Assembly: GCA_003246755.1 (NCBI GenBank)
Contig: QKDC01000174.1
Span: 1 to 61,092 of the forward strand
Length of the DNA: 61,092 nt
Direction: 5' to 3'
From: Gemmatimonadota bacterium
Lineage (GTDB): Bacteria; Gemmatimonadota; Gemmatimonadetes; Gemmatimonadales; GWC2-71-9
The notes beneath the pieces were generated by a model that saw only the letters and a program-made list of their open reading frames with translations, made no database searches and was not told where the DNA came from. Shown piece by piece: positions 9,408 to 19,180 of the stretch; within the stretch, counting starts at the first letter, position 1, and each line of letters begins with the position of its first letter. Position numbers and translations under genes: made by a program.

Positions 9408-11660
9408 CTACTTGATTCCCACCTTTGTCACAAATTCCCCGTACCGTGGATCCGTGCGGAGTGGTCCGTACATGGGATCCAGGTGCAAGTAGATCAGACC
9501 GGCCGATCTCGTTTGGAGTGCCTTGTCGAGCCAGTCAAAGGCGCGGTCGAGTTCACCCACCCCCGCATAGCCGATGGCCATCATCTCGCCCCGAACATAC
9601 TTGTGGTGTGAATCTTCCTCGAGCCGCTCCAAGATGGCGCGCGCCTCCTCATCTTCTCCCAGGGATGCCAGCGCACACACGATCATGGCATCATGTGACC
9701 GGATCGCCGTATTCAGCGACTGCCCTTTCTGAAGCGTCTTGAGTGCTTCCTCGTTCCGTCCCAGGGCGAGTTGAGCGGACCCCGTGTCGACATACGCCTG
9801 GGAATACAGCGGTTCGAGGTCCAACGCCTTGGAGGCCTGGGTGATCGCTTCCTCGTATCGGCCCGCGAACCCGAGAAATCGCGCGATCCAACGGCTGAAG
9901 GGTGCTGACAACGGATCGAGGACCACCGCTTTCCGCAACTCCTCGATGGCGTCGTCCAATCGGCCCACGCACGGAAGTACGGTCCCGTAGACGAAATGGG
10001 CCTCGGCGTAGTTGGGGTTGTATCGCACTGCGTCCGCCAGGGCCTTCGCGGCTCCAGCGAAATCCCACTCGTACCACGAGAGGACTTTACCAAGCGAGGT
10101 GTGCGCTTCAGCCAGGGTCGGTTCCAGTTGGATCGCCCGGGCAGCCGCGGACTTGGCCCGCGGGTAGGCTTCGGCCGGTGCGACCCAGTTATCGGCAAGA
10201 CTCGCCCAGCAGTCGGCGATTCCCGAGTACACCTTGGCGTACCCGACGTCGATGTCCAGGGCCTCCTCGAAGAAGGCGAGGGCCTTGCGGATGGTGTCCC
10301 CCGACCGATCGACGCTGCCCAGGAACCGACCCTTCAGGTAGAGCGTATAGGCATCGAGATTCTCCGTGGTGGGCTTGACCAGTTGCTGGTTTCCACCGAC
10401 CAATTGGACGTGCAACGCATCGGCGATGGCCTGGGAGATCTCCTCCTGAATGGCAAACACATCTTCGAACTGTCGGTCGTAGACGTGCGACCAGAGCTGA
10501 TACCCGTTCGTCACATCGATGAGTTGGGCCGAAATCCTGATCCGATTCCCGATCTTCCGGACGCTCCCCTCGAGCACCGTCTGCACCCCGAGCTTCTCAC
10601 CGATCTGCCTGATGTCGAGTTCCTTTCCCTTGAACGCGAACGAGGACGTACGTGAAGCCACCTGGACGTCCGGGATCATCGCGAGGGCGTTGAGAATCTC
10701 CTCGGTCATGCCATCGCTGAAGTATTCGTTCTCGGGATCGGCGCTCATGTTGCGGAGGGGAAGCACGGCAATCGACTTCTCCGGGGCGGCCTGGCGTGCG
10801 CTCACACCACCACCCGGCGTTTGGCCGTCTCGTCGGATCGCCCGCAGGAGTTCCGCGAACTCGCCGGCGGTGGGGAAGCGATCGACCGCCGTTCGGGCGA
10901 GCGCCTTGGTGACGGCGGTATCCAACGCATCCGGGATGTCCCGCACCGCCTTCGCATGAGGCACCGGAGACATGAACCGTTTGGCGATGACACCCTGGGC
11001 GGTCGCCGCCGTGTAGGGTTGTTCCCCGGTGAGCATCTCGTAGAGCACGCAAGCGAGGCTGTAGATGTCGCTGCGTCCGTCGACGACGCTTTCGGCGGTC
11101 GCCTGCTCCGGACTCATGTAGGCCGGAGTTCCGACGGCGAGTCCGGTCTGGGTGATGGATCCCCCCATCTCACTCACCGCCTTGCCAATGCCGAAGTCGG
11201 CCACGAGGGCAGCACCCTCGTGCATCAGAATGTTCTCCGGCTTGATATCCCGGTGGATGACACCCTGACGGTGCGCGTAGTCGAGCGCAGAGGCGATCTC
11301 GGAGGTAATCCGGAGGGCATCGTCGAGGGGAAGCATCTTCTCGCGAGTAATCCGGTCCCGCAGGGATTGGCCCTCCATGTTGGGCATCACATAGAACAAC
11401 AGGTCGCCCGCAGATCCCGAGTCGTGGACGGGAAGAATGTGCGGATGGGTGAGTCCGGCGGCGATCCGGATCTCTCGGTGGAAACGATCCGAGCCCATCT
11501 CGCCCGAAATCTCCGGCCGCAGGACTTTGATGGCGACCTTGCGACCATGCCTGATGTCTTCGGCGAGGAAGACCACGGCCATCCCGCCCTCACCGAGTTG
11601 TCGCTCGATGCGGTATCGCGTTCCGAGGCCGTCCTGGAGTTGTTCTTGGAGAGTCGACAC
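9408..11660 (-). CDS. Hanks-type Ser/Thr kinase with TolB-N-like domain and TPR repeats (no TM segment)
   Basis: GEGGMAVV, VAIK, HRDIKPEN, DFG, YMSPEQ, then SIAVLPLRNMS...EYFSDGMTEEI and TPR-like helices. Confidence 0.93.
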   Translation of the reverse strand: MSTLQEQLQDGLGTRYRIERQLGEGGMAVVFLAEDIRHGRKVAIKVLRPEISGEMGSDRFHREIRIAAGLTHPHILPVHDSGSAGDLLFYVMPNMEGQSLRDRITREKMLPLDDALRITSEIASALDYAHRQGVIHRDIKPENILMHEGAALVADFGIGKAVSEMGGSITQTGLAVGTPAYMSPEQATAESVVDGRSDIYSLACVLYEMLTGEQPYTAATAQGVIAKRFMSPVPHAKAVRDIPDALDTAVTKALARTAVDRFPTAGEFAELLRAIRRDGQTPGGGVSARQAAPEKSIAVLPLRNMSADPENEYFSDGMTEEILNALAMIPDVQVASRTSSFAFKGKELDIRQIGEKLGVQTVLEGSVRKIGNRIRISAQLIDVTNGYQLWSHVYDRQFEDVFAIQEEISQAIADALHVQLVGGNQQLVKPTTENLDAYTLYLKGRFLGSVDRSGDTIRKALAFFEEALDIDVGYAKVYSGIADCWASLADNWVAPAEAYPRAKSAAARAIQLEPTLAEAHTSLGKVLSWYEWDFAGAAKALADAVRYNPNYAEAHFVYGTVLPCVGRLDDAIEELRKAVVLDPLSAPFSRWIARFLGFAGRYEEAITQASKALDLEPLYSQAYVDTGSAQLALGRNEEALKTLQKGQSLNTAIRSHDAMIVCALASLGEDEEARAILERLEEDSHHKYVRGEMMAIGYAGVGELDRAFDWLDKALQTRSAGLIYLHLDPMYGPLRTDPRYGEFVTKVGIK

Positions 11661-11776: not shown

Positions 11777-12538
11777 TCAACCGACTCCCCTTGGCCTGCC
11801 TCCTCGCCGAGGGGTGACCACCCTCGGACTCGCGGCCATGAGGAGCGCGGCGAGAGCCTGGAGGCGTTCTCCCCAGAAGACCCTCCGTTCGTCCGCGACC
11901 TCCCGGCTGGGCAACCCGACGTGCTGCACCTGGACGGAGGACTTCGTCGGGCCCTTGGCCATGAAGTAGGCCTGCACCAGGGTGCCGTCCTCCCAGGTAC
12001 AACGAATGGACTTTTCCTTTGATGAGGTTCGGATCGTTGGCTCGTGATCCGGAAGCCACCGCTTCCGGGAGGACTTGGTGCTGAAGGCCTGATAGAGTTC
12101 TCGGATCGGGACAGCGATGGTTTTGCTCTTGTTGACCTCATAGGCGCCGGTTCTCCGCTGTCCTACTTCGCGAAGACCCTTGATGCGCTCGTATCCCACG
12201 GTCACCATTTGCGCCCACCACGGACCCACCTTGTACTTCTCGCCGACCAGTCGCGCGATGTCCCGGTGTGGCAGGTCCATCGCCTTATGCCGGTCGAGCG
12301 CACAAACCCACTTGGCCCAGTCGCAACCCGTTGCCTTCTTCACGGCTTCGTCGGTGTATCCCGCCAAGCGCGCGAAGCTCTCGGGGCTGGGAGGTGTGGC
12401 CGGGCTCTCCACCCCCGAAGAGAGCGAGGCGTTGCGGGGGTTCGAGGTGAGGATACGGGTCCGGGCCGTCGTATAGGCTTCCCCGGTCTTGCGCATGCGC
12501 GCGCGGACCAGGCGTTTGAGGTCTTTCTGACTCGGCAT
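11777..12538 (-). CDS. Hypothetical protein: basic N-terminal module, DUF4287-like helical domain and SRPBCC/AHSA1-like C-terminus
   Basis: Strong SD AAAGGAG before ATG 12538. MPSQKDLKRLVRARMRKTGEAYTTAR, then TDEAVKKATG..W..W, WWAQMVTVGYER, and SKTIAVPIRELYQAF...QH..LP...FWGERL. Confidence 0.75.
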   Translation of the reverse strand: MPSQKDLKRLVRARMRKTGEAYTTARTRILTSNPRNASLSSGVESPATPPSPESFARLAGYTDEAVKKATGCDWAKWVCALDRHKAMDLPHRDIARLVGEKYKVGPWWAQMVTVGYERIKGLREVGQRRTGAYEVNKSKTIAVPIRELYQAFSTKSSRKRWLPDHEPTIRTSSKEKSIRCTWEDGTLVQAYFMAKGPTKSSVQVQHVGLPSREVADERRVFWGERLQALAALLMAASPRVVTPRRGGRPRGVG

Positions 12539-12539
12539 G

Positions 12540-12706
12540 GAGGAATCTCCTTTGGTCAAGCCACGCGCGCACACCCCCCAGCGGCGGCGCCACCTGGCGA
12601 CGCAAAGGACCGTTCGGAATGCCGACCCGGGAGTATGCCCCCCTTTGCCTCACTGGGACCCCTGCTGGGGAGGGATCGAAGAGGTTGGGCGTGGATCAGA
12701 TCGCCA
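12540..12706 (-). ncRNA. Candidate structured, pseudoknotted 5' leader RNA
   Basis: Four complementary pairs on the minus strand: UGGCGAU/GUCGCCA, GCAAAGG/CCUUUGC, CUCCCCAGC/GCUGGGGGG, CCACGC/GCGUGG. It starts at the predicted transcription start. Confidence 0.55.
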
Positions 12707-12711
12707 TCACC

Positions 12712-12740
12712 ATTATGGAGATATATTCGGGGACTTGCAA
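12712..12740 (-). promoter_or_regulatory. sigma70-type promoter
   Basis: TTGCAA-N17-CATAAT. Predicted start site near 12705. Confidence 0.65.
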
Positions 12741-12768: not shown

Positions 12769-13356
12769 ATGAGACCTGCAGGAATTCTGGCCCTTTCGGC
12801 CCTTCTCTTCGCGTGCGGTGGTGAAACGCCGGAGGCTGGTGCTGACGATGCCCAGGCGACCGTTGCCGATGCCATGGCTCCCGTCGCGGACATGATACAG
12901 AACTTTCAACCGATGAAGCTCGAGGAGCGCGATGTCGAGCGGTTCATTTCCGTGCTACAGGAATTCGAACGAATGGGTGTGAAACTCAACGAGAACGTCG
13001 GAGAGAACCCCTCAGACATCTCGAGTGTGTTCCAAGGATTGGGCGCCAATGCGGAGGCGATGGCCGTGCTGCGGGACCACGATCTCGACGTGATGAAGTT
13101 TCAGCAGCTGGGTATGTCAGTCATGATGGCCGCGGCGGCTTCGGAGTTGGGAGACCAGTCACCCGACATGGCGGCGGAACAGGCCCGACTCGAAGAGATG
13201 AAGGCCACGCTCCCGCCGGAACAGTACGAGGCGATGATGAGTGCTCGAAAGAACGCCGAAGCGATGATGGTGTCGATCCAGAATCAGCCGGCAGGGAATG
13301 TGGAACTCGTGGCCCGCTATCGCGACCAACTGGAGGCCATCGGGAACAAGCAATGA
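12769..13356 (+). CDS. Hypothetical helical lipoprotein
   Basis: SD GGAGG before ATG 12769 and lipobox LFAC. Met/Glu/Ala-rich. Confidence 0.75.
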   Translation: MRPAGILALSALLFACGGETPEAGADDAQATVADAMAPVADMIQNFQPMKLEERDVERFISVLQEFERMGVKLNENVGENPSDISSVFQGLGANAEAMAVLRDHDLDVMKFQQLGMSVMMAAAASELGDQSPDMAAEQARLEEMKATLPPEQYEAMMSARKNAEAMMVSIQNQPAGNVELVARYRDQLEAIGNKQ

Positions 13357-14124: not shown

Positions 14125-16470
14125 ATGGCCGAGCCGATCGTTCGTCTCAATACTGCGCTCGAAGGCCGCTACATGGTCGAGCGTGAATTGGGCCACGGTG
14201 GCATGGCCACGGTCTACCTGGCAACGGATCTCAAGCACGGACGTCAGGTCGCGCTGAAGGTCCTTCATCCCGAGCTCGCGGCCTCGCTCGGTGCCGATCG
14301 GTTTGCCCGAGAAATAGAGATCGCCGCACGTCTCACGCATCCCCATATCCTGAGCCTGCTCGATTCCGGAGTCGCCGACGGGCTGCTGTTCTACACCATG
14401 CCGTACATCGATGGGGAATCACTGGCCCAACGGCTCGACCGCGAGGGCCAGCTCCCCCTCGACGACGCACTCCAGCTCACCAGCGCGATCGCCGACGCGC
14501 TGGGTCATGCTCACGCGCACGGGGTCATCCACCGCGACATCAAACCCGCGAACATTCTGCTCGCGGACGGTCAGCCCGTCGTCGCTGACTTCGGGATCGC
14601 CAAGGCCATCTCGGAAGCCGGGGCCGAGAAACTCACGGAAACCGGCCTCGCCGTCGGTACCCCGCACTACATGAGCCCCGAACAGGCCGAAGCCACCGGC
14701 CGCATCGACCGCCGAAGCGATGTTTACAGCCTCGCTTGCATGTTCTACCACATGGTGGTGGGCGAACCGCCGTTCACCGGCCCGAGTGCGCAGGCGATCC
14801 TCGCCCGTCACGCGCTCGACCCAGTGGCGCCTGTCTCGACAGTACGTGGAGTGATTCCCCCCTCGGTGGACGTGGTGCTCAGCAAGGCCCTCGCCAAGGC
14901 GCCTGCCGATCGTTATGCCTCAGCAACGGCGTTTGCGACCGCACTGGAAGAAGCGAGTCGGGAGGACCCAACGGTCAAGCGACGACGCTCGACCCTCCAG
15001 CGATCGCTGGCGGGTGCGGCCTTGGTGCTCGTGGTAGCCTTGGGAGGTTGGTGGGCGGTTGCGCGAGGTGACGGTGGACCCAACATCGAGCGACTCGCGG
15101 TCCTCCCGCCCGTCGCCGGGAGTACAACGCCCGACCGGGAACCTGTGGTGCTTGGGATGTACTCCGCCCTGCTCACCGAACTGGGACAGGCCGGTGTCAC
15201 GGTGATCGGCAGCCTCCAATCGATGCAGCGATATCGTACCACGACCATGACGGTGGCAGAGATCGCCGCCGAACTCGGGGTGGATGCGGTCATCGAGCCC
15301 ACTATCTATTGGGCGGGGGACAGTGTGGGGCTGGGGGTCCGCATGATCGACGGCAGGAGCGAGGAGGCACTCTGGTCGCGGTCCTGGGAGGCCGATGCCC
15401 GAAACGTGGTCACTCTCTACCGTCAGGTCACGAGGGGCATCGCCGCTGAGATCCAACTCGCACTCACTCCCTCAGTCGTCAGCCATCTCGCCACGGCTCG
15501 TTCGGTCAACCCCGAAGCCTATGAGGCCTGGCTCCAGGGGAGATTCTATAGCGGCAAGCTGACACCCAGCGATCTCGAGACCGCAACGGAGTACTTCAAT
15601 CTCGCGCTGGAGAAAGATCCTGACTTCGCCCCAGCCTATGCCGGTTTGTCCTGGGTATGGATCGCGAGCCAACAGATGGGCTATGTCTCTCCAGCAGAGG
15701 CGACCCCCAAGGCCGTGGAGGCCGCGAGGCACGCGCTGGCACTCGATAGCTTGCTGGCCGAGGGCCATCATAGCCTAGCAACGGCCGAAGGATGGGCCAG
15801 TTGGGATTGGGAGCGGGGAGAACGGGGCCTCCGCCGCGCCATAGCACTCAACCCGGCGGACGGGGATGCCCGGGCCGACTATTCCCATTTTCTACTCGTC
15901 CTCAAGCGGTTCGAGGAGGCTGAGCGCCAGATCGACAGCGCCCTGGCTCGCGACCCGATGAACCTCAGGTACATCGGGTTCCGTGCGGTCATTTATATGA
16001 ATACCGGTCAGCGTGACAAGGGATTTCAAGAGTTTCGCCGGATGCTCCGAGTTGCGCCCAATCACCCAGTGGCGTTGAGCGTGCTCGCCGACGTGAGTCA
16101 CGAGTTGGGTCGCGAGGACTCAGCGGTCTACTACCAGACCACTGTGCTCGAGTTGACCGGCGAAGCTGAGTTGGCCTCCGTGATCCGAAAGGACTACGAG
16201 GAAGTGGGGTATCGAGAAGCGATGCGTCAGGCTGGGGACTTGTTGGCCCGAGGGGCCCAGGAACGTTTCGTGCCCCCGATGATGGTCGCGAAGCTCTACG
16301 CCCATGCGGGAGACGTGGAGCAGACCCTGCACTGGCTCGAGCGTGGAGTCGAAGGCCGGGAACCCAATCTTCCCTACATCGGGGTGACACCCCTCTTCGA
16401 TTTCGTCAGGGGCGAGCCTCGTTTCAAGGCAATTCTCGAGGCCATGCATCTACCCTGGGTAGACGACTGA
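14125..16470 (+). CDS. Ser/Thr kinase with TM helix, TolB-N-like domain and TPR repeats
   Basis: GHGGMATV, VALK, HRDIKPAN, DFG, YMSPEQ, TM segment LAGAALVLVVALGGWWAV, RLAVLP and TPRs. Confidence 0.92.
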   Translation: MAEPIVRLNTALEGRYMVERELGHGGMATVYLATDLKHGRQVALKVLHPELAASLGADRFAREIEIAARLTHPHILSLLDSGVADGLLFYTMPYIDGESLAQRLDREGQLPLDDALQLTSAIADALGHAHAHGVIHRDIKPANILLADGQPVVADFGIAKAISEAGAEKLTETGLAVGTPHYMSPEQAEATGRIDRRSDVYSLACMFYHMVVGEPPFTGPSAQAILARHALDPVAPVSTVRGVIPPSVDVVLSKALAKAPADRYASATAFATALEEASREDPTVKRRRSTLQRSLAGAALVLVVALGGWWAVARGDGGPNIERLAVLPPVAGSTTPDREPVVLGMYSALLTELGQAGVTVIGSLQSMQRYRTTTMTVAEIAAELGVDAVIEPTIYWAGDSVGLGVRMIDGRSEEALWSRSWEADARNVVTLYRQVTRGIAAEIQLALTPSVVSHLATARSVNPEAYEAWLQGRFYSGKLTPSDLETATEYFNLALEKDPDFAPAYAGLSWVWIASQQMGYVSPAEATPKAVEAARHALALDSLLAEGHHSLATAEGWASWDWERGERGLRRAIALNPADGDARADYSHFLLVLKRFEEAERQIDSALARDPMNLRYIGFRAVIYMNTGQRDKGFQEFRRMLRVAPNHPVALSVLADVSHELGREDSAVYYQTTVLELTGEAELASVIRKDYEEVGYREAMRQAGDLLARGAQERFVPPMMVAKLYAHAGDVEQTLHWLERGVEGREPNLPYIGVTPLFDFVRGEPRFKAILEAMHLPWVDD

Positions 16471-16474
16471 GCGG

Positions 16475-19180
16475 TTACCGGATCGCTTTCAACTCCTCGA
16501 ACCAGTTCTGCACCACGATCAACTCCCCTGCCCCCTGCTCGGCGCCCCGCAGCCGGACCATGATGAAGCGCTGATCGTCCGACGTCACGTCGTACGAACG
16601 GTTTCGGGCTCCAAGGCCACGGTACGCCGTGGTTGGAAACAGGGTCCGTTGGGCTCCGGTGGCGAACGTCGGGCCCGGGAGGACCTCCACCGAATTCATT
16701 GCCGTAGGGCTCCGGTAGAACAACTCCCGCCCACTGTGAGCCCACAGGGGCTGCTCGCCACCACCGGTCGAGATCTGCCACTTGGCGTCGCCCGCGTTCG
16801 GGAAGGGCCGCACGTACACTTCACGCTGCCCCGACTCGTTGGAGCCGTACGCCAGCCATCGTCCGTCTGGCGAAAGCGCCGGATGGAACTCGGGGAATTC
16901 GGTCGTGAGCAACGGGGTCGGCGCGCTATCCTCGCCCGGCCGCATGGCGTACAGGTCACCCCAGTCGCCGGTACCGGGGGCACTTTCGCGAAACACGATC
17001 CAGCGCCCGTCCCGCGAAGTTTCAATTTCCTGGAGGCCCTGGTCGCGGTCGAGCAGCAGCTCCGCCACCGCGCTTCCGTCGGCCCGCTTGGCGTAGAACT
17101 GTTGGTCCCCTTCGTCCCGATTGGACTGGAAGTACACCTCCTGCCCGTCGGGCCGCCATGCGGGCCTGAGGTTGAGGCTGCCTTCGAAGGTGAGTTTGGA
17201 GAGCGGCCCACGATCGAGCTGCTTGACCCAGAGCTGGGTCTCGGCCTCCGACTGAATGCTCACCGCCAACCGTGTGTCATCCGGCGAGAGCGCGAGAGTC
17301 GTGAATCGTCCCGTCCACCCCGGTTCGACCTCGGTTGCGACGCCATCCCTCGTCACCCACACCAACTCGTCCGGGCTCTGGGCCGTGACCCCGGTCGTGT
17401 AGACGAGCGTGCCCGTGGAGGACAGTGCAAGGTCCACGGAGCCTACGAACCGCGTCGAAAGGCCCTCCACGAGGGATACCGCATCACCGGTCAGCTCCAT
17501 CCGGTCCTGGTCGAACGGAGCCGCCATCAGCGTTCCATTCGCCGTCACGTAGACCAGGTGCCCGGACGTGGCATATCGCGCGAGGATGCCCCGGGTGAGG
17601 ATACGGTGTTGCCCTGTGGCTCGGTCGGCCACCGCAACATCCGCCTCCTCGAGGTCTCCTCCGAGGCCACCCCGGCCGACGACGACAAAGAGAACGCCTT
17701 TACCGTTGGGGAGTACCTCCGGCCGTATGTGGCCGCTCTCGTTTTGCGAGGTGTCGATGGTGGTGAACGCGGTTGGCACACCACCGGTGGCGGGCACGGT
17801 CGCGAGTCCATTTGGGCCGCTCAGATAGATGAGCCCATCAGGGCCCCAACTCCCACCGAAGATTTCCACACCGGAGTCCGCGACCGTGAGCGGTGGCCCC
17901 CCACCCAGCGAAACAACCTCCACCCTGGAGGCCCCACCCCGACGCGCGAGGATATACGCCACCCGGCTGCCATCCGGCGAGAAGAACGGCTCACCCGCGC
18001 CTTCGGTGCCGGGCAGGGGCGTCGCTTCGAGCTGGGAGAGCGACCGCAGCCAGAGCTGCTGCTGACCTGCACCATCCCGCGAAGGACCTCGATACACCAG
18101 CCGTGAGCCGTCTGGTGAGATGGCCAGCCGCGAGAGGAAGAAGGGCATGAGCGCCTGGTCATCCGGCATGGCAACGCTGAATCGGGATACCTGCAAGGCC
18201 GGCTCAGGACGCGGACGTAGCCAACCCCACAGGGCCAACAGCCCGAGAACCGCCGCGAGACCAGCGAAGATGCGGGTGCGTTGTTTGGTCCGGCCCGATG
18301 CCTGGTCTGCTGTCGCCGATGGAATGCCAAGGGTAAACGCGGGATTGGAGAGTGCCTCAGAGAATTTCGCCGCACTGGTAAATCGATCGGCCGGGCTCTT
18401 GGCGAGGGACTTCTGAATCGCCGCATCCACGTTCGGCGGGACCATACTGCGCGACCGGGTGATCGGCGTCGGAGTATCGGAGAGGATCCTGGCCACCACG
18501 GCCTGCACACTGGCCCCAATGTGCGGCGGCTCCCCCACCAGCATCTCGTAGGCCATCGCGCCGAGGGCGTAGATGTCGCTCCGGGCATCGAGTGCGCGAT
18601 CGCCGGCCGCCTGCTCCGGACTCATGTAGTGCGGTGTGCCGAGCGAGAGACCGGTTTCGGTGAGCCTGCTTCCCCCCGCTTGGGAGACCGCGAGCGCGAT
18701 ACCGAAGTCGGCGACGAGTGGCTTCCCACGCTGGAGCAGGATGTTCTCGGGTTTGATGTCGCGATGCACGATCCCTTGTTCGTGCGCAAAGTGGAGCGCG
18801 TCGGCGACGTCCTTGACGATGGCAACGGTTTCTTCGACGGGGAGTTGCTTCTCCCGCATCATCCTCCCGCGAAGCGTCTCGTCTTCGACGTACGGCATCA
18901 CGTAGTAGAGGTATTCGGGCGAGGTCCCCGCTTTGCCGCTGTCATAGAGTGGCAGAATGTTCGGGTGCTGGAGATTGGCGGTGACCTTGATCTCGGCGAG
19001 GAATCGATCGCCGCCGACGATGGCGGCCAGTTCCGGGCGAAGGACCTTGACCGCAACTTTGCGATCGTGCTTGAGGTCGTGGGCGAGGTAGACGGTGGCC
19101 ATCCCACCCTCACCTAGGTGTCGCTCGATGCGGTAGGTGTCGGCGAGCGCAGCAGTCAGTCCGGCGATCGGATCGGTCAA
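16475..19180 (-). CDS. Ser/Thr kinase with TM helix and PD40 beta-propellers
   Basis: Intact kinase motifs (HRDIKPEN, DFG), a TM segment, SPDG repeats, and the C-terminus YDVTSDDQRF...VVQNWFEEL. Confidence 0.93.
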   Translation of the reverse strand: MTDPIAGLTAALADTYRIERHLGEGGMATVYLAHDLKHDRKVAVKVLRPELAAIVGGDRFLAEIKVTANLQHPNILPLYDSGKAGTSPEYLYYVMPYVEDETLRGRMMREKQLPVEETVAIVKDVADALHFAHEQGIVHRDIKPENILLQRGKPLVADFGIALAVSQAGGSRLTETGLSLGTPHYMSPEQAAGDRALDARSDIYALGAMAYEMLVGEPPHIGASVQAVVARILSDTPTPITRSRSMVPPNVDAAIQKSLAKSPADRFTSAAKFSEALSNPAFTLGIPSATADQASGRTKQRTRIFAGLAAVLGLLALWGWLRPRPEPALQVSRFSVAMPDDQALMPFFLSRLAISPDGSRLVYRGPSRDGAGQQQLWLRSLSQLEATPLPGTEGAGEPFFSPDGSRVAYILARRGGASRVEVVSLGGGPPLTVADSGVEIFGGSWGPDGLIYLSGPNGLATVPATGGVPTAFTTIDTSQNESGHIRPEVLPNGKGVLFVVVGRGGLGGDLEEADVAVADRATGQHRILTRGILARYATSGHLVYVTANGTLMAAPFDQDRMELTGDAVSLVEGLSTRFVGSVDLALSSTGTLVYTTGVTAQSPDELVWVTRDGVATEVEPGWTGRFTTLALSPDDTRLAVSIQSEAETQLWVKQLDRGPLSKLTFEGSLNLRPAWRPDGQEVYFQSNRDEGDQQFYAKRADGSAVAELLLDRDQGLQEIETSRDGRWIVFRESAPGTGDWGDLYAMRPGEDSAPTPLLTTEFPEFHPALSPDGRWLAYGSNESGQREVYVRPFPNAGDAKWQISTGGGEQPLWAHSGRELFYRSPTAMNSVEVLPGPTFATGAQRTLFPTTAYRGLGARNRSYDVTSDDQRFIMVRLRGAEQGAGELIVVQNWFEELKAIR

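Follow-up and report, generated by a model that had tools for sequence, protein, structure and literature searches.

Autogenous control is established for proteins that mainly serve to bind RNA. Cobalamin-class translational riboswitches have a multi-stem 5' domain, a long-range loop-loop contact, and SD control. Phage lambda N carries a short Arg-rich N-terminal peptide, and boxB is a hairpin with a GNRNA pentaloop. Rom/Rop is built from helical hairpins and is a free protein of ~63 residues that acts on two separate RNAs. The ColE1 Rom/Rop protein binds and stabilises loop-loop (kissing) RNA complexes (PMC2602780). The ribosomal proteins uS4 (alpha operon), uS15 (rpsO), and bL20 repress through pseudoknots or three-way junctions (PMC10931766); there, the whole protein binds, and some of the operators mimic the rRNA site. 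ANTAR regulators (EutV, NasR, AmiR, Rv1626) have a small helical RNA-binding output domain that is fused to varied partners. In EutV, K143, K147, E160, and Y164 matter for RNA binding, and in the region of the third helix M172 and N173/R175/R177 are essential (PMC8934654).

Here, we describe a cassette in which a leader RNA runs into a gene whose first codons encode a short basic module. It lies in a window, i.e. the whole stretch of DNA that was analysed, of 61,092 nucleotides from a Gemmatimonadota bacterium (contig QKDC01000174.1, positions 1 to 61,092). The cassette resembles the ribosomal-protein operators, in which a basic RNA-binding protein is encoded just 3' of a pseudoknot or junction leader at the initiation site (PMC10931766). 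In contrast to these operators, the putative binder is a 28-residue tag on unrelated cargo, found in several phyla, on plasmids, and in viral records, and no match of the cassette to a ribosomal-protein family or an Rfam r-leader was found. By analogy, the cassette would work like the ribosomal-protein operators, but it is not one. Like the cobalamin-class riboswitches, the leader is predicted to combine a multi-stem 5' domain, a long-range loop-loop contact, and SD control; unlike them, it has no Rfam match, no common pathway downstream, and a near-obligate N-terminal peptide. In contrast to the RNAs of Rom/Rop, both kissing loops are within one leader; Rom gives no sequence match to the module and is absent from the listed fold matches of the module. 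The likeness to lambda N and boxB consists of the short basic N-terminal peptide and, in the window's own clade, a GNRNA pentaloop hairpin. We found no description of the cassette in the literature: the available main text of the motif surveys PMC11109978 and PMC5737381 has no such motif, and the supplements of PMC11109978 (large motif tables) and PMC5737381 may hold one.

The protein and its N-terminal module

The open reading frame at 11777-12538 (-) encodes P0001, a protein of 253 amino acids, with the N-terminus quoted in an earlier note made from the sequence alone. That note had described an Arg/Lys-rich start separated by a Ser/Pro linker from a helical domain and an SRPBCC-like domain, and each of these parts is borne out. 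Of the first 30 residues, 9 are Lys or Arg and 2 are acidic, and 12 of the 24 residues at 31-54 are Ser or Pro. The AlphaFold2 model (113 sequences, mean pLDDT 91.7) begins with helices at residues 5-18 and 22-31; a linker of low confidence leads to a helical domain at 52-119 and an alpha/beta domain at 133-236. Accordingly divided, the gene comprises the basic module (residues 1-28; 12455-12538 (-)), which is predicted to be a helical hairpin; the variable linker (~residues 29-54; 12377-12454 (-)), which has 22% amino-acid identity across 116 homologues and low pLDDT; a DUF4287-like helical domain (~residues 55-123; 12170-12376 (-)); and a last domain with a basic tail (11777-12169 (-)). The DUF4287 match of P0001 is weak (Pfam E 0.17, below the cut-off), and homologues reach the cut-off with E down to 1e-6. 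The last domain also stays below the cut-off in Pfam (AHSA1, E 0.006); its predicted structure matches the helix-grip fold of SRPBCC/AHSA1 proteins by Foldseek (75 matches at E up to 0.001) and VIA-align (Z 15.8, rmsd 1.6, 102 residues aligned). Among 5328 candidates, 3808 are relatives of P0001. An NCBIfam search of P0001 gave no match, and no viral relative of the full protein was found.

K8, R12, E20, and A25 are present in all 97 modules found through the RNA; R14, T18, and G19 in 96, Y22 in 94, and R26 in 92 of these 97. The codons of the invariant residues vary (E20 108:94, T18 111:87, and five Arg codons at R12), and amino-acid identity is 0.76 in the module versus 0.64 and 0.51 in the cargo domains. 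Conservation stops abruptly at about residue 30 whatever the cargo, at the end of a confidently predicted helical hairpin. These sequence comparisons indicate that selection acts on the amino acids of the module. Four-fold sites are also more conserved in the module (0.61) than in the cargo (0.43-0.47); therefore, part of the constraint may be on the RNA or on the codons.

Searches of Pfam, PHROGs, and PDB sequences with the module gave nothing convincing. Foldseek with the module alone had no match at E up to 0.001, and the only ESM Atlas match, an unnamed cluster at 0.78, is below a useful level. A 32-position profile of the module matches 3033 clusters at 50% identity, and many of the 150 listed are short fragments. 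Fold comparison of the module alone points to a likeness, at Z below 5, to helices 1 and 2 of ANTAR domains and to UBA-like domains. The top 21 fold matches include four ANTAR proteins (Z 4.0-4.5, rmsd 1.7-1.9, 36 residues); unrelated chains score equally well. An ungapped reading of the EutV match (1-36 on 139-174) would place K5, R9, Y22, and R26 of the module on K143, K147, E160, and Y164 of EutV, whereas the essential residues of the third-helix region would fall on the unconserved linker of the cassette protein. The ANTAR domain is a three-helix bundle of ~60 residues, whereas the module is two helices in ~30 residues followed by a linker with 22% identity; moreover, unlike ANTAR, the module stands at the N-terminus and is linked to one leader, its own. 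With the Pfam ANTAR profile, neither P0001 nor any of 66 modules matched at E up to 1. The ANTAR target motif (hexaloop hairpins with A1 and G4, usually dual) in its dual form occurs in 0 of 196 leaders; a loose single hexaloop match occurs in 66 of 196, a raw, uncontrolled count. An ANTAR family search of the window's own genome matched nothing anywhere, controls included, and is thus uninformative. The ANTAR likeness of the predicted module structure is a lead only.

The leader RNA and its predicted promoter

The leader is ~170 nt long and runs into the start codon (12536-12708 (-)); it scores 149.7 bits with our RNA model R1, in whose training set the window is included. It is the single full copy in its genome. 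Rfam gave no match to the leader at the gathering score, nor at E up to 10 save one chance match, and no match to the window and 10 diverse loci at gathering scores, riboswitch models included. The RNA runs gave no RNA holder among the matches listed. The structured leader that the earlier note had assumed is supported by comparison of leaders and not by single-sequence folding, which was no better than shuffles (z 0.21). Imposed on 60 leaders, the structure described below is paired in 96.8% of cells, with changes on both sides at 24 of its 42 pairs; slid controls pair at 41-56%. None of 500 shuffles reached as high a covariation, a count that is not a probability since the leader sequences are related. 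These 60 were taken from 81 leaders after setting aside L007, L014, L030, and near-duplicates from A2. For the structure in the wider family, 196 leaders were parsed out of 207 loci (11 could not be parsed).

The 5' part begins with a pseudoknot, PK1 (12688-12705 (-)), in which 12705-12702, the first bases of the predicted transcript, pair with 12691-12688 in the joiner between P1 and P2, crossing P1. All 4 pairs are Watson-Crick in 194 of 196 parsed leaders; the joiner half of this pairing belonged to the search pattern for the metagenome loci described below, and the 5' half did not. The offset is nearly always 11-14 nt, and there are 3 compensatory variants only. A three-way junction domain follows (12624-12697 (-)), with P1 (12697-93/12628-24), P2 (12684-81/12651-48), which has four compensatory versions, and P3 (12677-71/12663-57); the domain also has an A-rich joiner (12647-44) and the P4 hairpin (12643-29). 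The P4 loop reads GNRNA in 137 of 151 leaders with the window's own type of cargo, in 0 of 9 nitrilase leaders, and in 1 of 8 DUF1835 leaders. A boxB-like P4 loop was therefore rejected as an unlikely shared binding site, since GNRNA is absent in 9/9 nitrilase and 7/8 DUF1835 leaders and the module there is unchanged. The P2-P3 joiner and the linker connecting the two RNA domains can accommodate 13-50 nt of extra sequence (L014, L007, L154, L318).

The two RNA domains are connected by a kissing contact. The 7-nt loop of P3 (kissing loop 1, 12664-12670 (-)) pairs with kissing loop 2 (12582-12576) in the 3' hairpin P5 (12547-12608 (-)), with 99.8% of cells paired. The loops are complementary over 7 bp, with 1 compensatory pair within the window's clade and many compensatory versions across clades. 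P5 also holds an anti-SD strand (12608-12603) and the SD-bearing strand (12554-12547), and an anti-start strand (12619-12625 (-)), overlapping the end of P1 by 2 nt, is complementary over 7 nt to AUG and the next bases (duplex -14.6 kcal/mol). Across the family, the mean anti-start duplex is -13.1 kcal/mol versus -10.8 +/- 0.2 kcal/mol with partners swapped among the 196 loci. The SD is predicted to be mostly paired in 181 of 196 leaders, its mean unpaired probability being 0.26 versus 0.48 in shuffled sequences. Thus, on covariation together with predicted burial of SD and start, the structured leader extends over the initiation site, and P5 is predicted to bury the SD and often the AUG. Even unbound, the leader is predicted to be in the off state: its minimum free energy is -78.0 with SD and AUG paired versus -68.0 with both held open. 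There is an alternative, SD-open fold, in which the anti-SD strand (12597-12608 (-)) pairs over 7 bp with the junction strand 12642-12648. This pairing outperforms shuffled sequences in 126 of 137 leaders of the window's clade, an advantage that other clades do not show, and a universal anti-anti-SD switch through the junction strand was rejected for want of support outside the own clade.

A predicted sigma-70-type promoter lies just ahead of the RNA (12712-12740 (-); -35 from 12740, 17-nt spacer, -10 ending at 12712; 9 of 12 matches). The region has 2 promoter-like sites versus 0.2 in shuffles, and a -35-like motif is found 34-45 nt ahead of the RNA in 155 of 192 leaders versus 13 of 179 in a control window. 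No terminator-like site was found in the window region. A divergent gene (12769-13356 (+)) begins ~30 nt from the -35 site of the cassette; its product of 195 residues has an N-terminus like that of a lipoprotein and matches nothing in Pfam. Three Ser/Thr kinase fusion genes lie nearby, at 9408-11660 (-), 14125-16470 (+), and 16475-19180 (+). The first was confirmed as a kinase-TPR fusion; it has its own promoter-like site at 11694-11667 and is therefore likely not co-transcribed with the cassette. Right after the stop codon, four Gemmatimonadota loci (L038, L043, L052, L054) have tandem heptamer repeats, in up to ~12 copies.

Joint occurrence of RNA and module, and exchange of cargo

The RNA-plus-peptide cassette is real, widespread, and apparently uncatalogued. 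The earlier note had proposed asking whether the RNA always lies upstream of the module. Starting from the module, the same junction core is found in 79 of 80 genome loci from Gemmatimonadota, Acidobacteriota, Planctomycetota, Latescibacterota, and Eisenbacteria; the remaining one, L030, keeps the 3' hairpin only. Samples of 301 genomes each around one Acidobacteriota and one Planctomycetota genome gave 30 places; L300 (genome G180) was left out of all analyses and counted only in the 16-of-301 tally. Of the 29 loci analysed, four repeat earlier loci. R1 matches upstream of the module in 26 of these 29. In L304, the RNA core is seen by eye only and missed by R1, and L322 and L324 have neither a start codon nor the RNA. 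Actinomycetota are represented by four records of the plasmid collection. In that collection, L085, L086, L088, and L090 scored with R1 and L087 and L089 did not; the last two (L087 1830-2003, L089 1850-2003) have highly divergent leaders in which complementary loops and a variant form of the 5' pseudoknot can be seen by eye, and the leader of L089 follows a tRNA-like sequence. L090 (1833-2450) is a copy on a Sinorhizobium plasmid with the RNA intact, upstream of an unannotated nitrilase gene with a non-standard start codon and an early stop. Viral module matches have the RNA in 3 of 4 cases, and L084 is a weak module match without it. A search of the GenBank phage collection gave no match.

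Starting from the RNA leads to the same association. A DNA pattern of the junction identified at least 119 metagenome loci, and the module is present in 103 of the 119 matches listed (71 in the first 80 loci, including one weak match of 6 bits, and 32 in the other 39). Among the matches without a module, 7 are at contig ends (3 a few codons into the gene, 4 inside the RNA), 6 look like chance (4 without a model match, 2 judged by eye), and L208, L235, and L269 are 5' half RNAs. No full-length RNA with readable downstream sequence lacked a module among the 119 listed. In viral contigs, 5 of 14 pattern matches are RNA with module; the other 9 have no module and are not RNA-like by eye. In 151 genomes of the window's own phylum, the RNA model found 20 matches, all of which adjoin a module match. 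One of these loci is a relic (L136, G004:C24:172139-172274), with the 3' hairpin (half RNA) and the first 14 module codons only. A module-first search of the same genomes gave 23 places. Of the three beyond the RNA matches, two are paralogues whose divergent RNA scores 35 and 32 bits, and the third is a weak module match without RNA.

The converse was asked of the cargo. Eight of 28 cargo homologues are without the module, and the RNA was found with R1 in none of these eight, where absence means not found with R1, a model that misses some divergent copies. The window's own genome has a second DUF4287 gene (L292, G000:C117:16397-16558), which scores above the cut-off and has neither module nor RNA. 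In L279 (G149:C94, ~1470-1510), a close cargo homologue (56% identity), leader and module are both lost; its start region, by eye, looks frameshifted and follows a tRNA-like or integration remnant.

The RNA precedes the module on at least six unrelated types of cargo. The module heads DUF4287-SRPBCC, nitrilase, DUF1835, BtrH_N/DUF4872, Clp_N, and TPR-containing proteins, as well as proteins of unknown type and viral ORFs. The BtrH cargo of L193 is 33-40% identical to other BtrH cargoes. Its RNA and module are closer to the window's clade than to the other BtrH loci (mean identity 75% versus 62% for the RNA, 78% versus 61% for the module). In trees, the L193 module groups with the window's clade (support 95/83, on 31 columns only), and the RNA does likewise with weaker support (88/79). 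It is reasoned that RNA and module changed cargo together. Judged by sequence, the cargo is interchangeable. Around 146 loci, no neighbour family occurs in more than 7, i.e. there is no conserved operon partner and no common downstream target. Viral records of 370-500 kb (G756, G757, G758; loci L081, L082, L143, L332) have two divergent cassettes each, on two unrelated ORFs that belong to no known family; two of the three records are near-copies.

Possible functions of the cassette

The earlier note had proposed an autoregulatory or RNP cassette with the C-terminal domains as sensor or cargo. The pairing of RNA and module over unrelated cargo supports a cassette, and from it we infer binding and autoregulation. 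A sensor role is without support because the C-terminal domains are interchangeable and there is no conserved neighbour gene to control; 'cargo' fits better. With a probability of about 0.55, we favour a reading in which the module represses translation by binding the leader of its own gene. Codons 1-28, together with the doubly pseudoknotted leader and its promoter, would form one portable unit on unrelated proteins. The basic helical hairpin would bind its own folded leader, possibly at the junction with PK1 or at the kissing helix; the bound leader would hold the ribosome-binding site shut and thus cap the amount of the attached protein. Transcription, direct contact, and the negative sign of the feedback are what we infer here. 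When a basic hairpin with an aromatic residue occurs with one and the same RNA regardless of cargo, binding of that RNA is the simplest explanation, and since the only evident output of the RNA is the initiation site of the same gene, negative autoregulation is favoured. Several points count against repression. Adjacent elements can travel together by linkage alone, and a fold of 170 nt is large for a ligand of 28 residues. The unbound fold is predicted to be already off, and the open junction-strand fold beats shuffles in the window's clade only. The loci without RNA (L084, L322, L324), with RNA by eye (L087, L089, L304), and with half RNAs (L208, L235, L269) are exceptions.

Linkage alone, or a 'peptide' that is the coding shadow of an RNA element extending into the gene, would account for the adjacency of leader and first codons, for an anti-start helix that extends into codons 1-2, and for the somewhat constrained four-fold sites. 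We regard this as very improbable, given the free codon variation at invariant residues, the sharp end of the conserved stretch near residue 30 on every cargo, and the confident hairpin fold. Another reading is that the leader is a riboswitch or is recognised by a host factor, such as a metabolite, an ion, or a ribosomal protein; the module would be a separate, co-selected tag for stability, oligomerisation, or targeting. The combination of a multi-stem junction with two pseudoknots and SD control is typical of riboswitches, and an aptamer-like 5' domain precedes a 3' hairpin that resembles an expression platform. Such a leader would be expected to precede tag-less genes too, yet no intact tag-less RNA is seen among the 119 listed and the 20 RNA-first matches, no RNA was found with R1 at cargo without the tag, and the downstream genes share no pathway, which leaves this quite unlikely.

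Two further readings keep the contact between module and leader. The module, the first part to leave the ribosome, might bind and open the leader, by positive feedback or as a nascent chain in cis, giving switch-like or burst expression. An unbound fold that is predicted to be off (-78.0 versus -68.0) makes an activator plausible; however, the most conserved part is the kissing and junction structure, which goes with the closed hairpin, and the open fold requires the junction to be dismantled and has support in one clade only, so that activation is hardly probable. Alternatively, the product may be a lasting RNA-protein particle, with the leader kept, or cut off as a small RNA, to tether, store, or inhibit the cargo, and with SD burial mainly limiting the translations per transcript. 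An RNA more elaborate than an operator needs, junction bases conserved in sequence across phyla, and the 370-500 kb viral records with two cassettes each on unrelated ORFs would fit a particle. The lack of a terminator-like site in the window region, the extension of the structure to SD and start codon with locus-specific pairing, as in a cis-regulator, and a cargo with no common chemistry for one RNA to inhibit make it unlikely.

Taken more broadly than repression, the cassette is rather likely a plug-and-play governor of expression, in which promoter, RNA, and RNA-binding tag travel together onto unrelated genes of bacteria, plasmids, and large phages and give each protein a feedback loop or an RNA tether; both the RNA family and the minimal RNA-binding fold would be new. 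If so, an RNA family and a protein domain would be added to the catalogues searched, which have neither, and a compact orthogonal RNA-peptide pair would be available for synthetic biology. A detachable tag of 28 residues with an operator of 170 nt would then be a general, mobile setter of protein copy number for enzymes, adaptors, and viral proteins.
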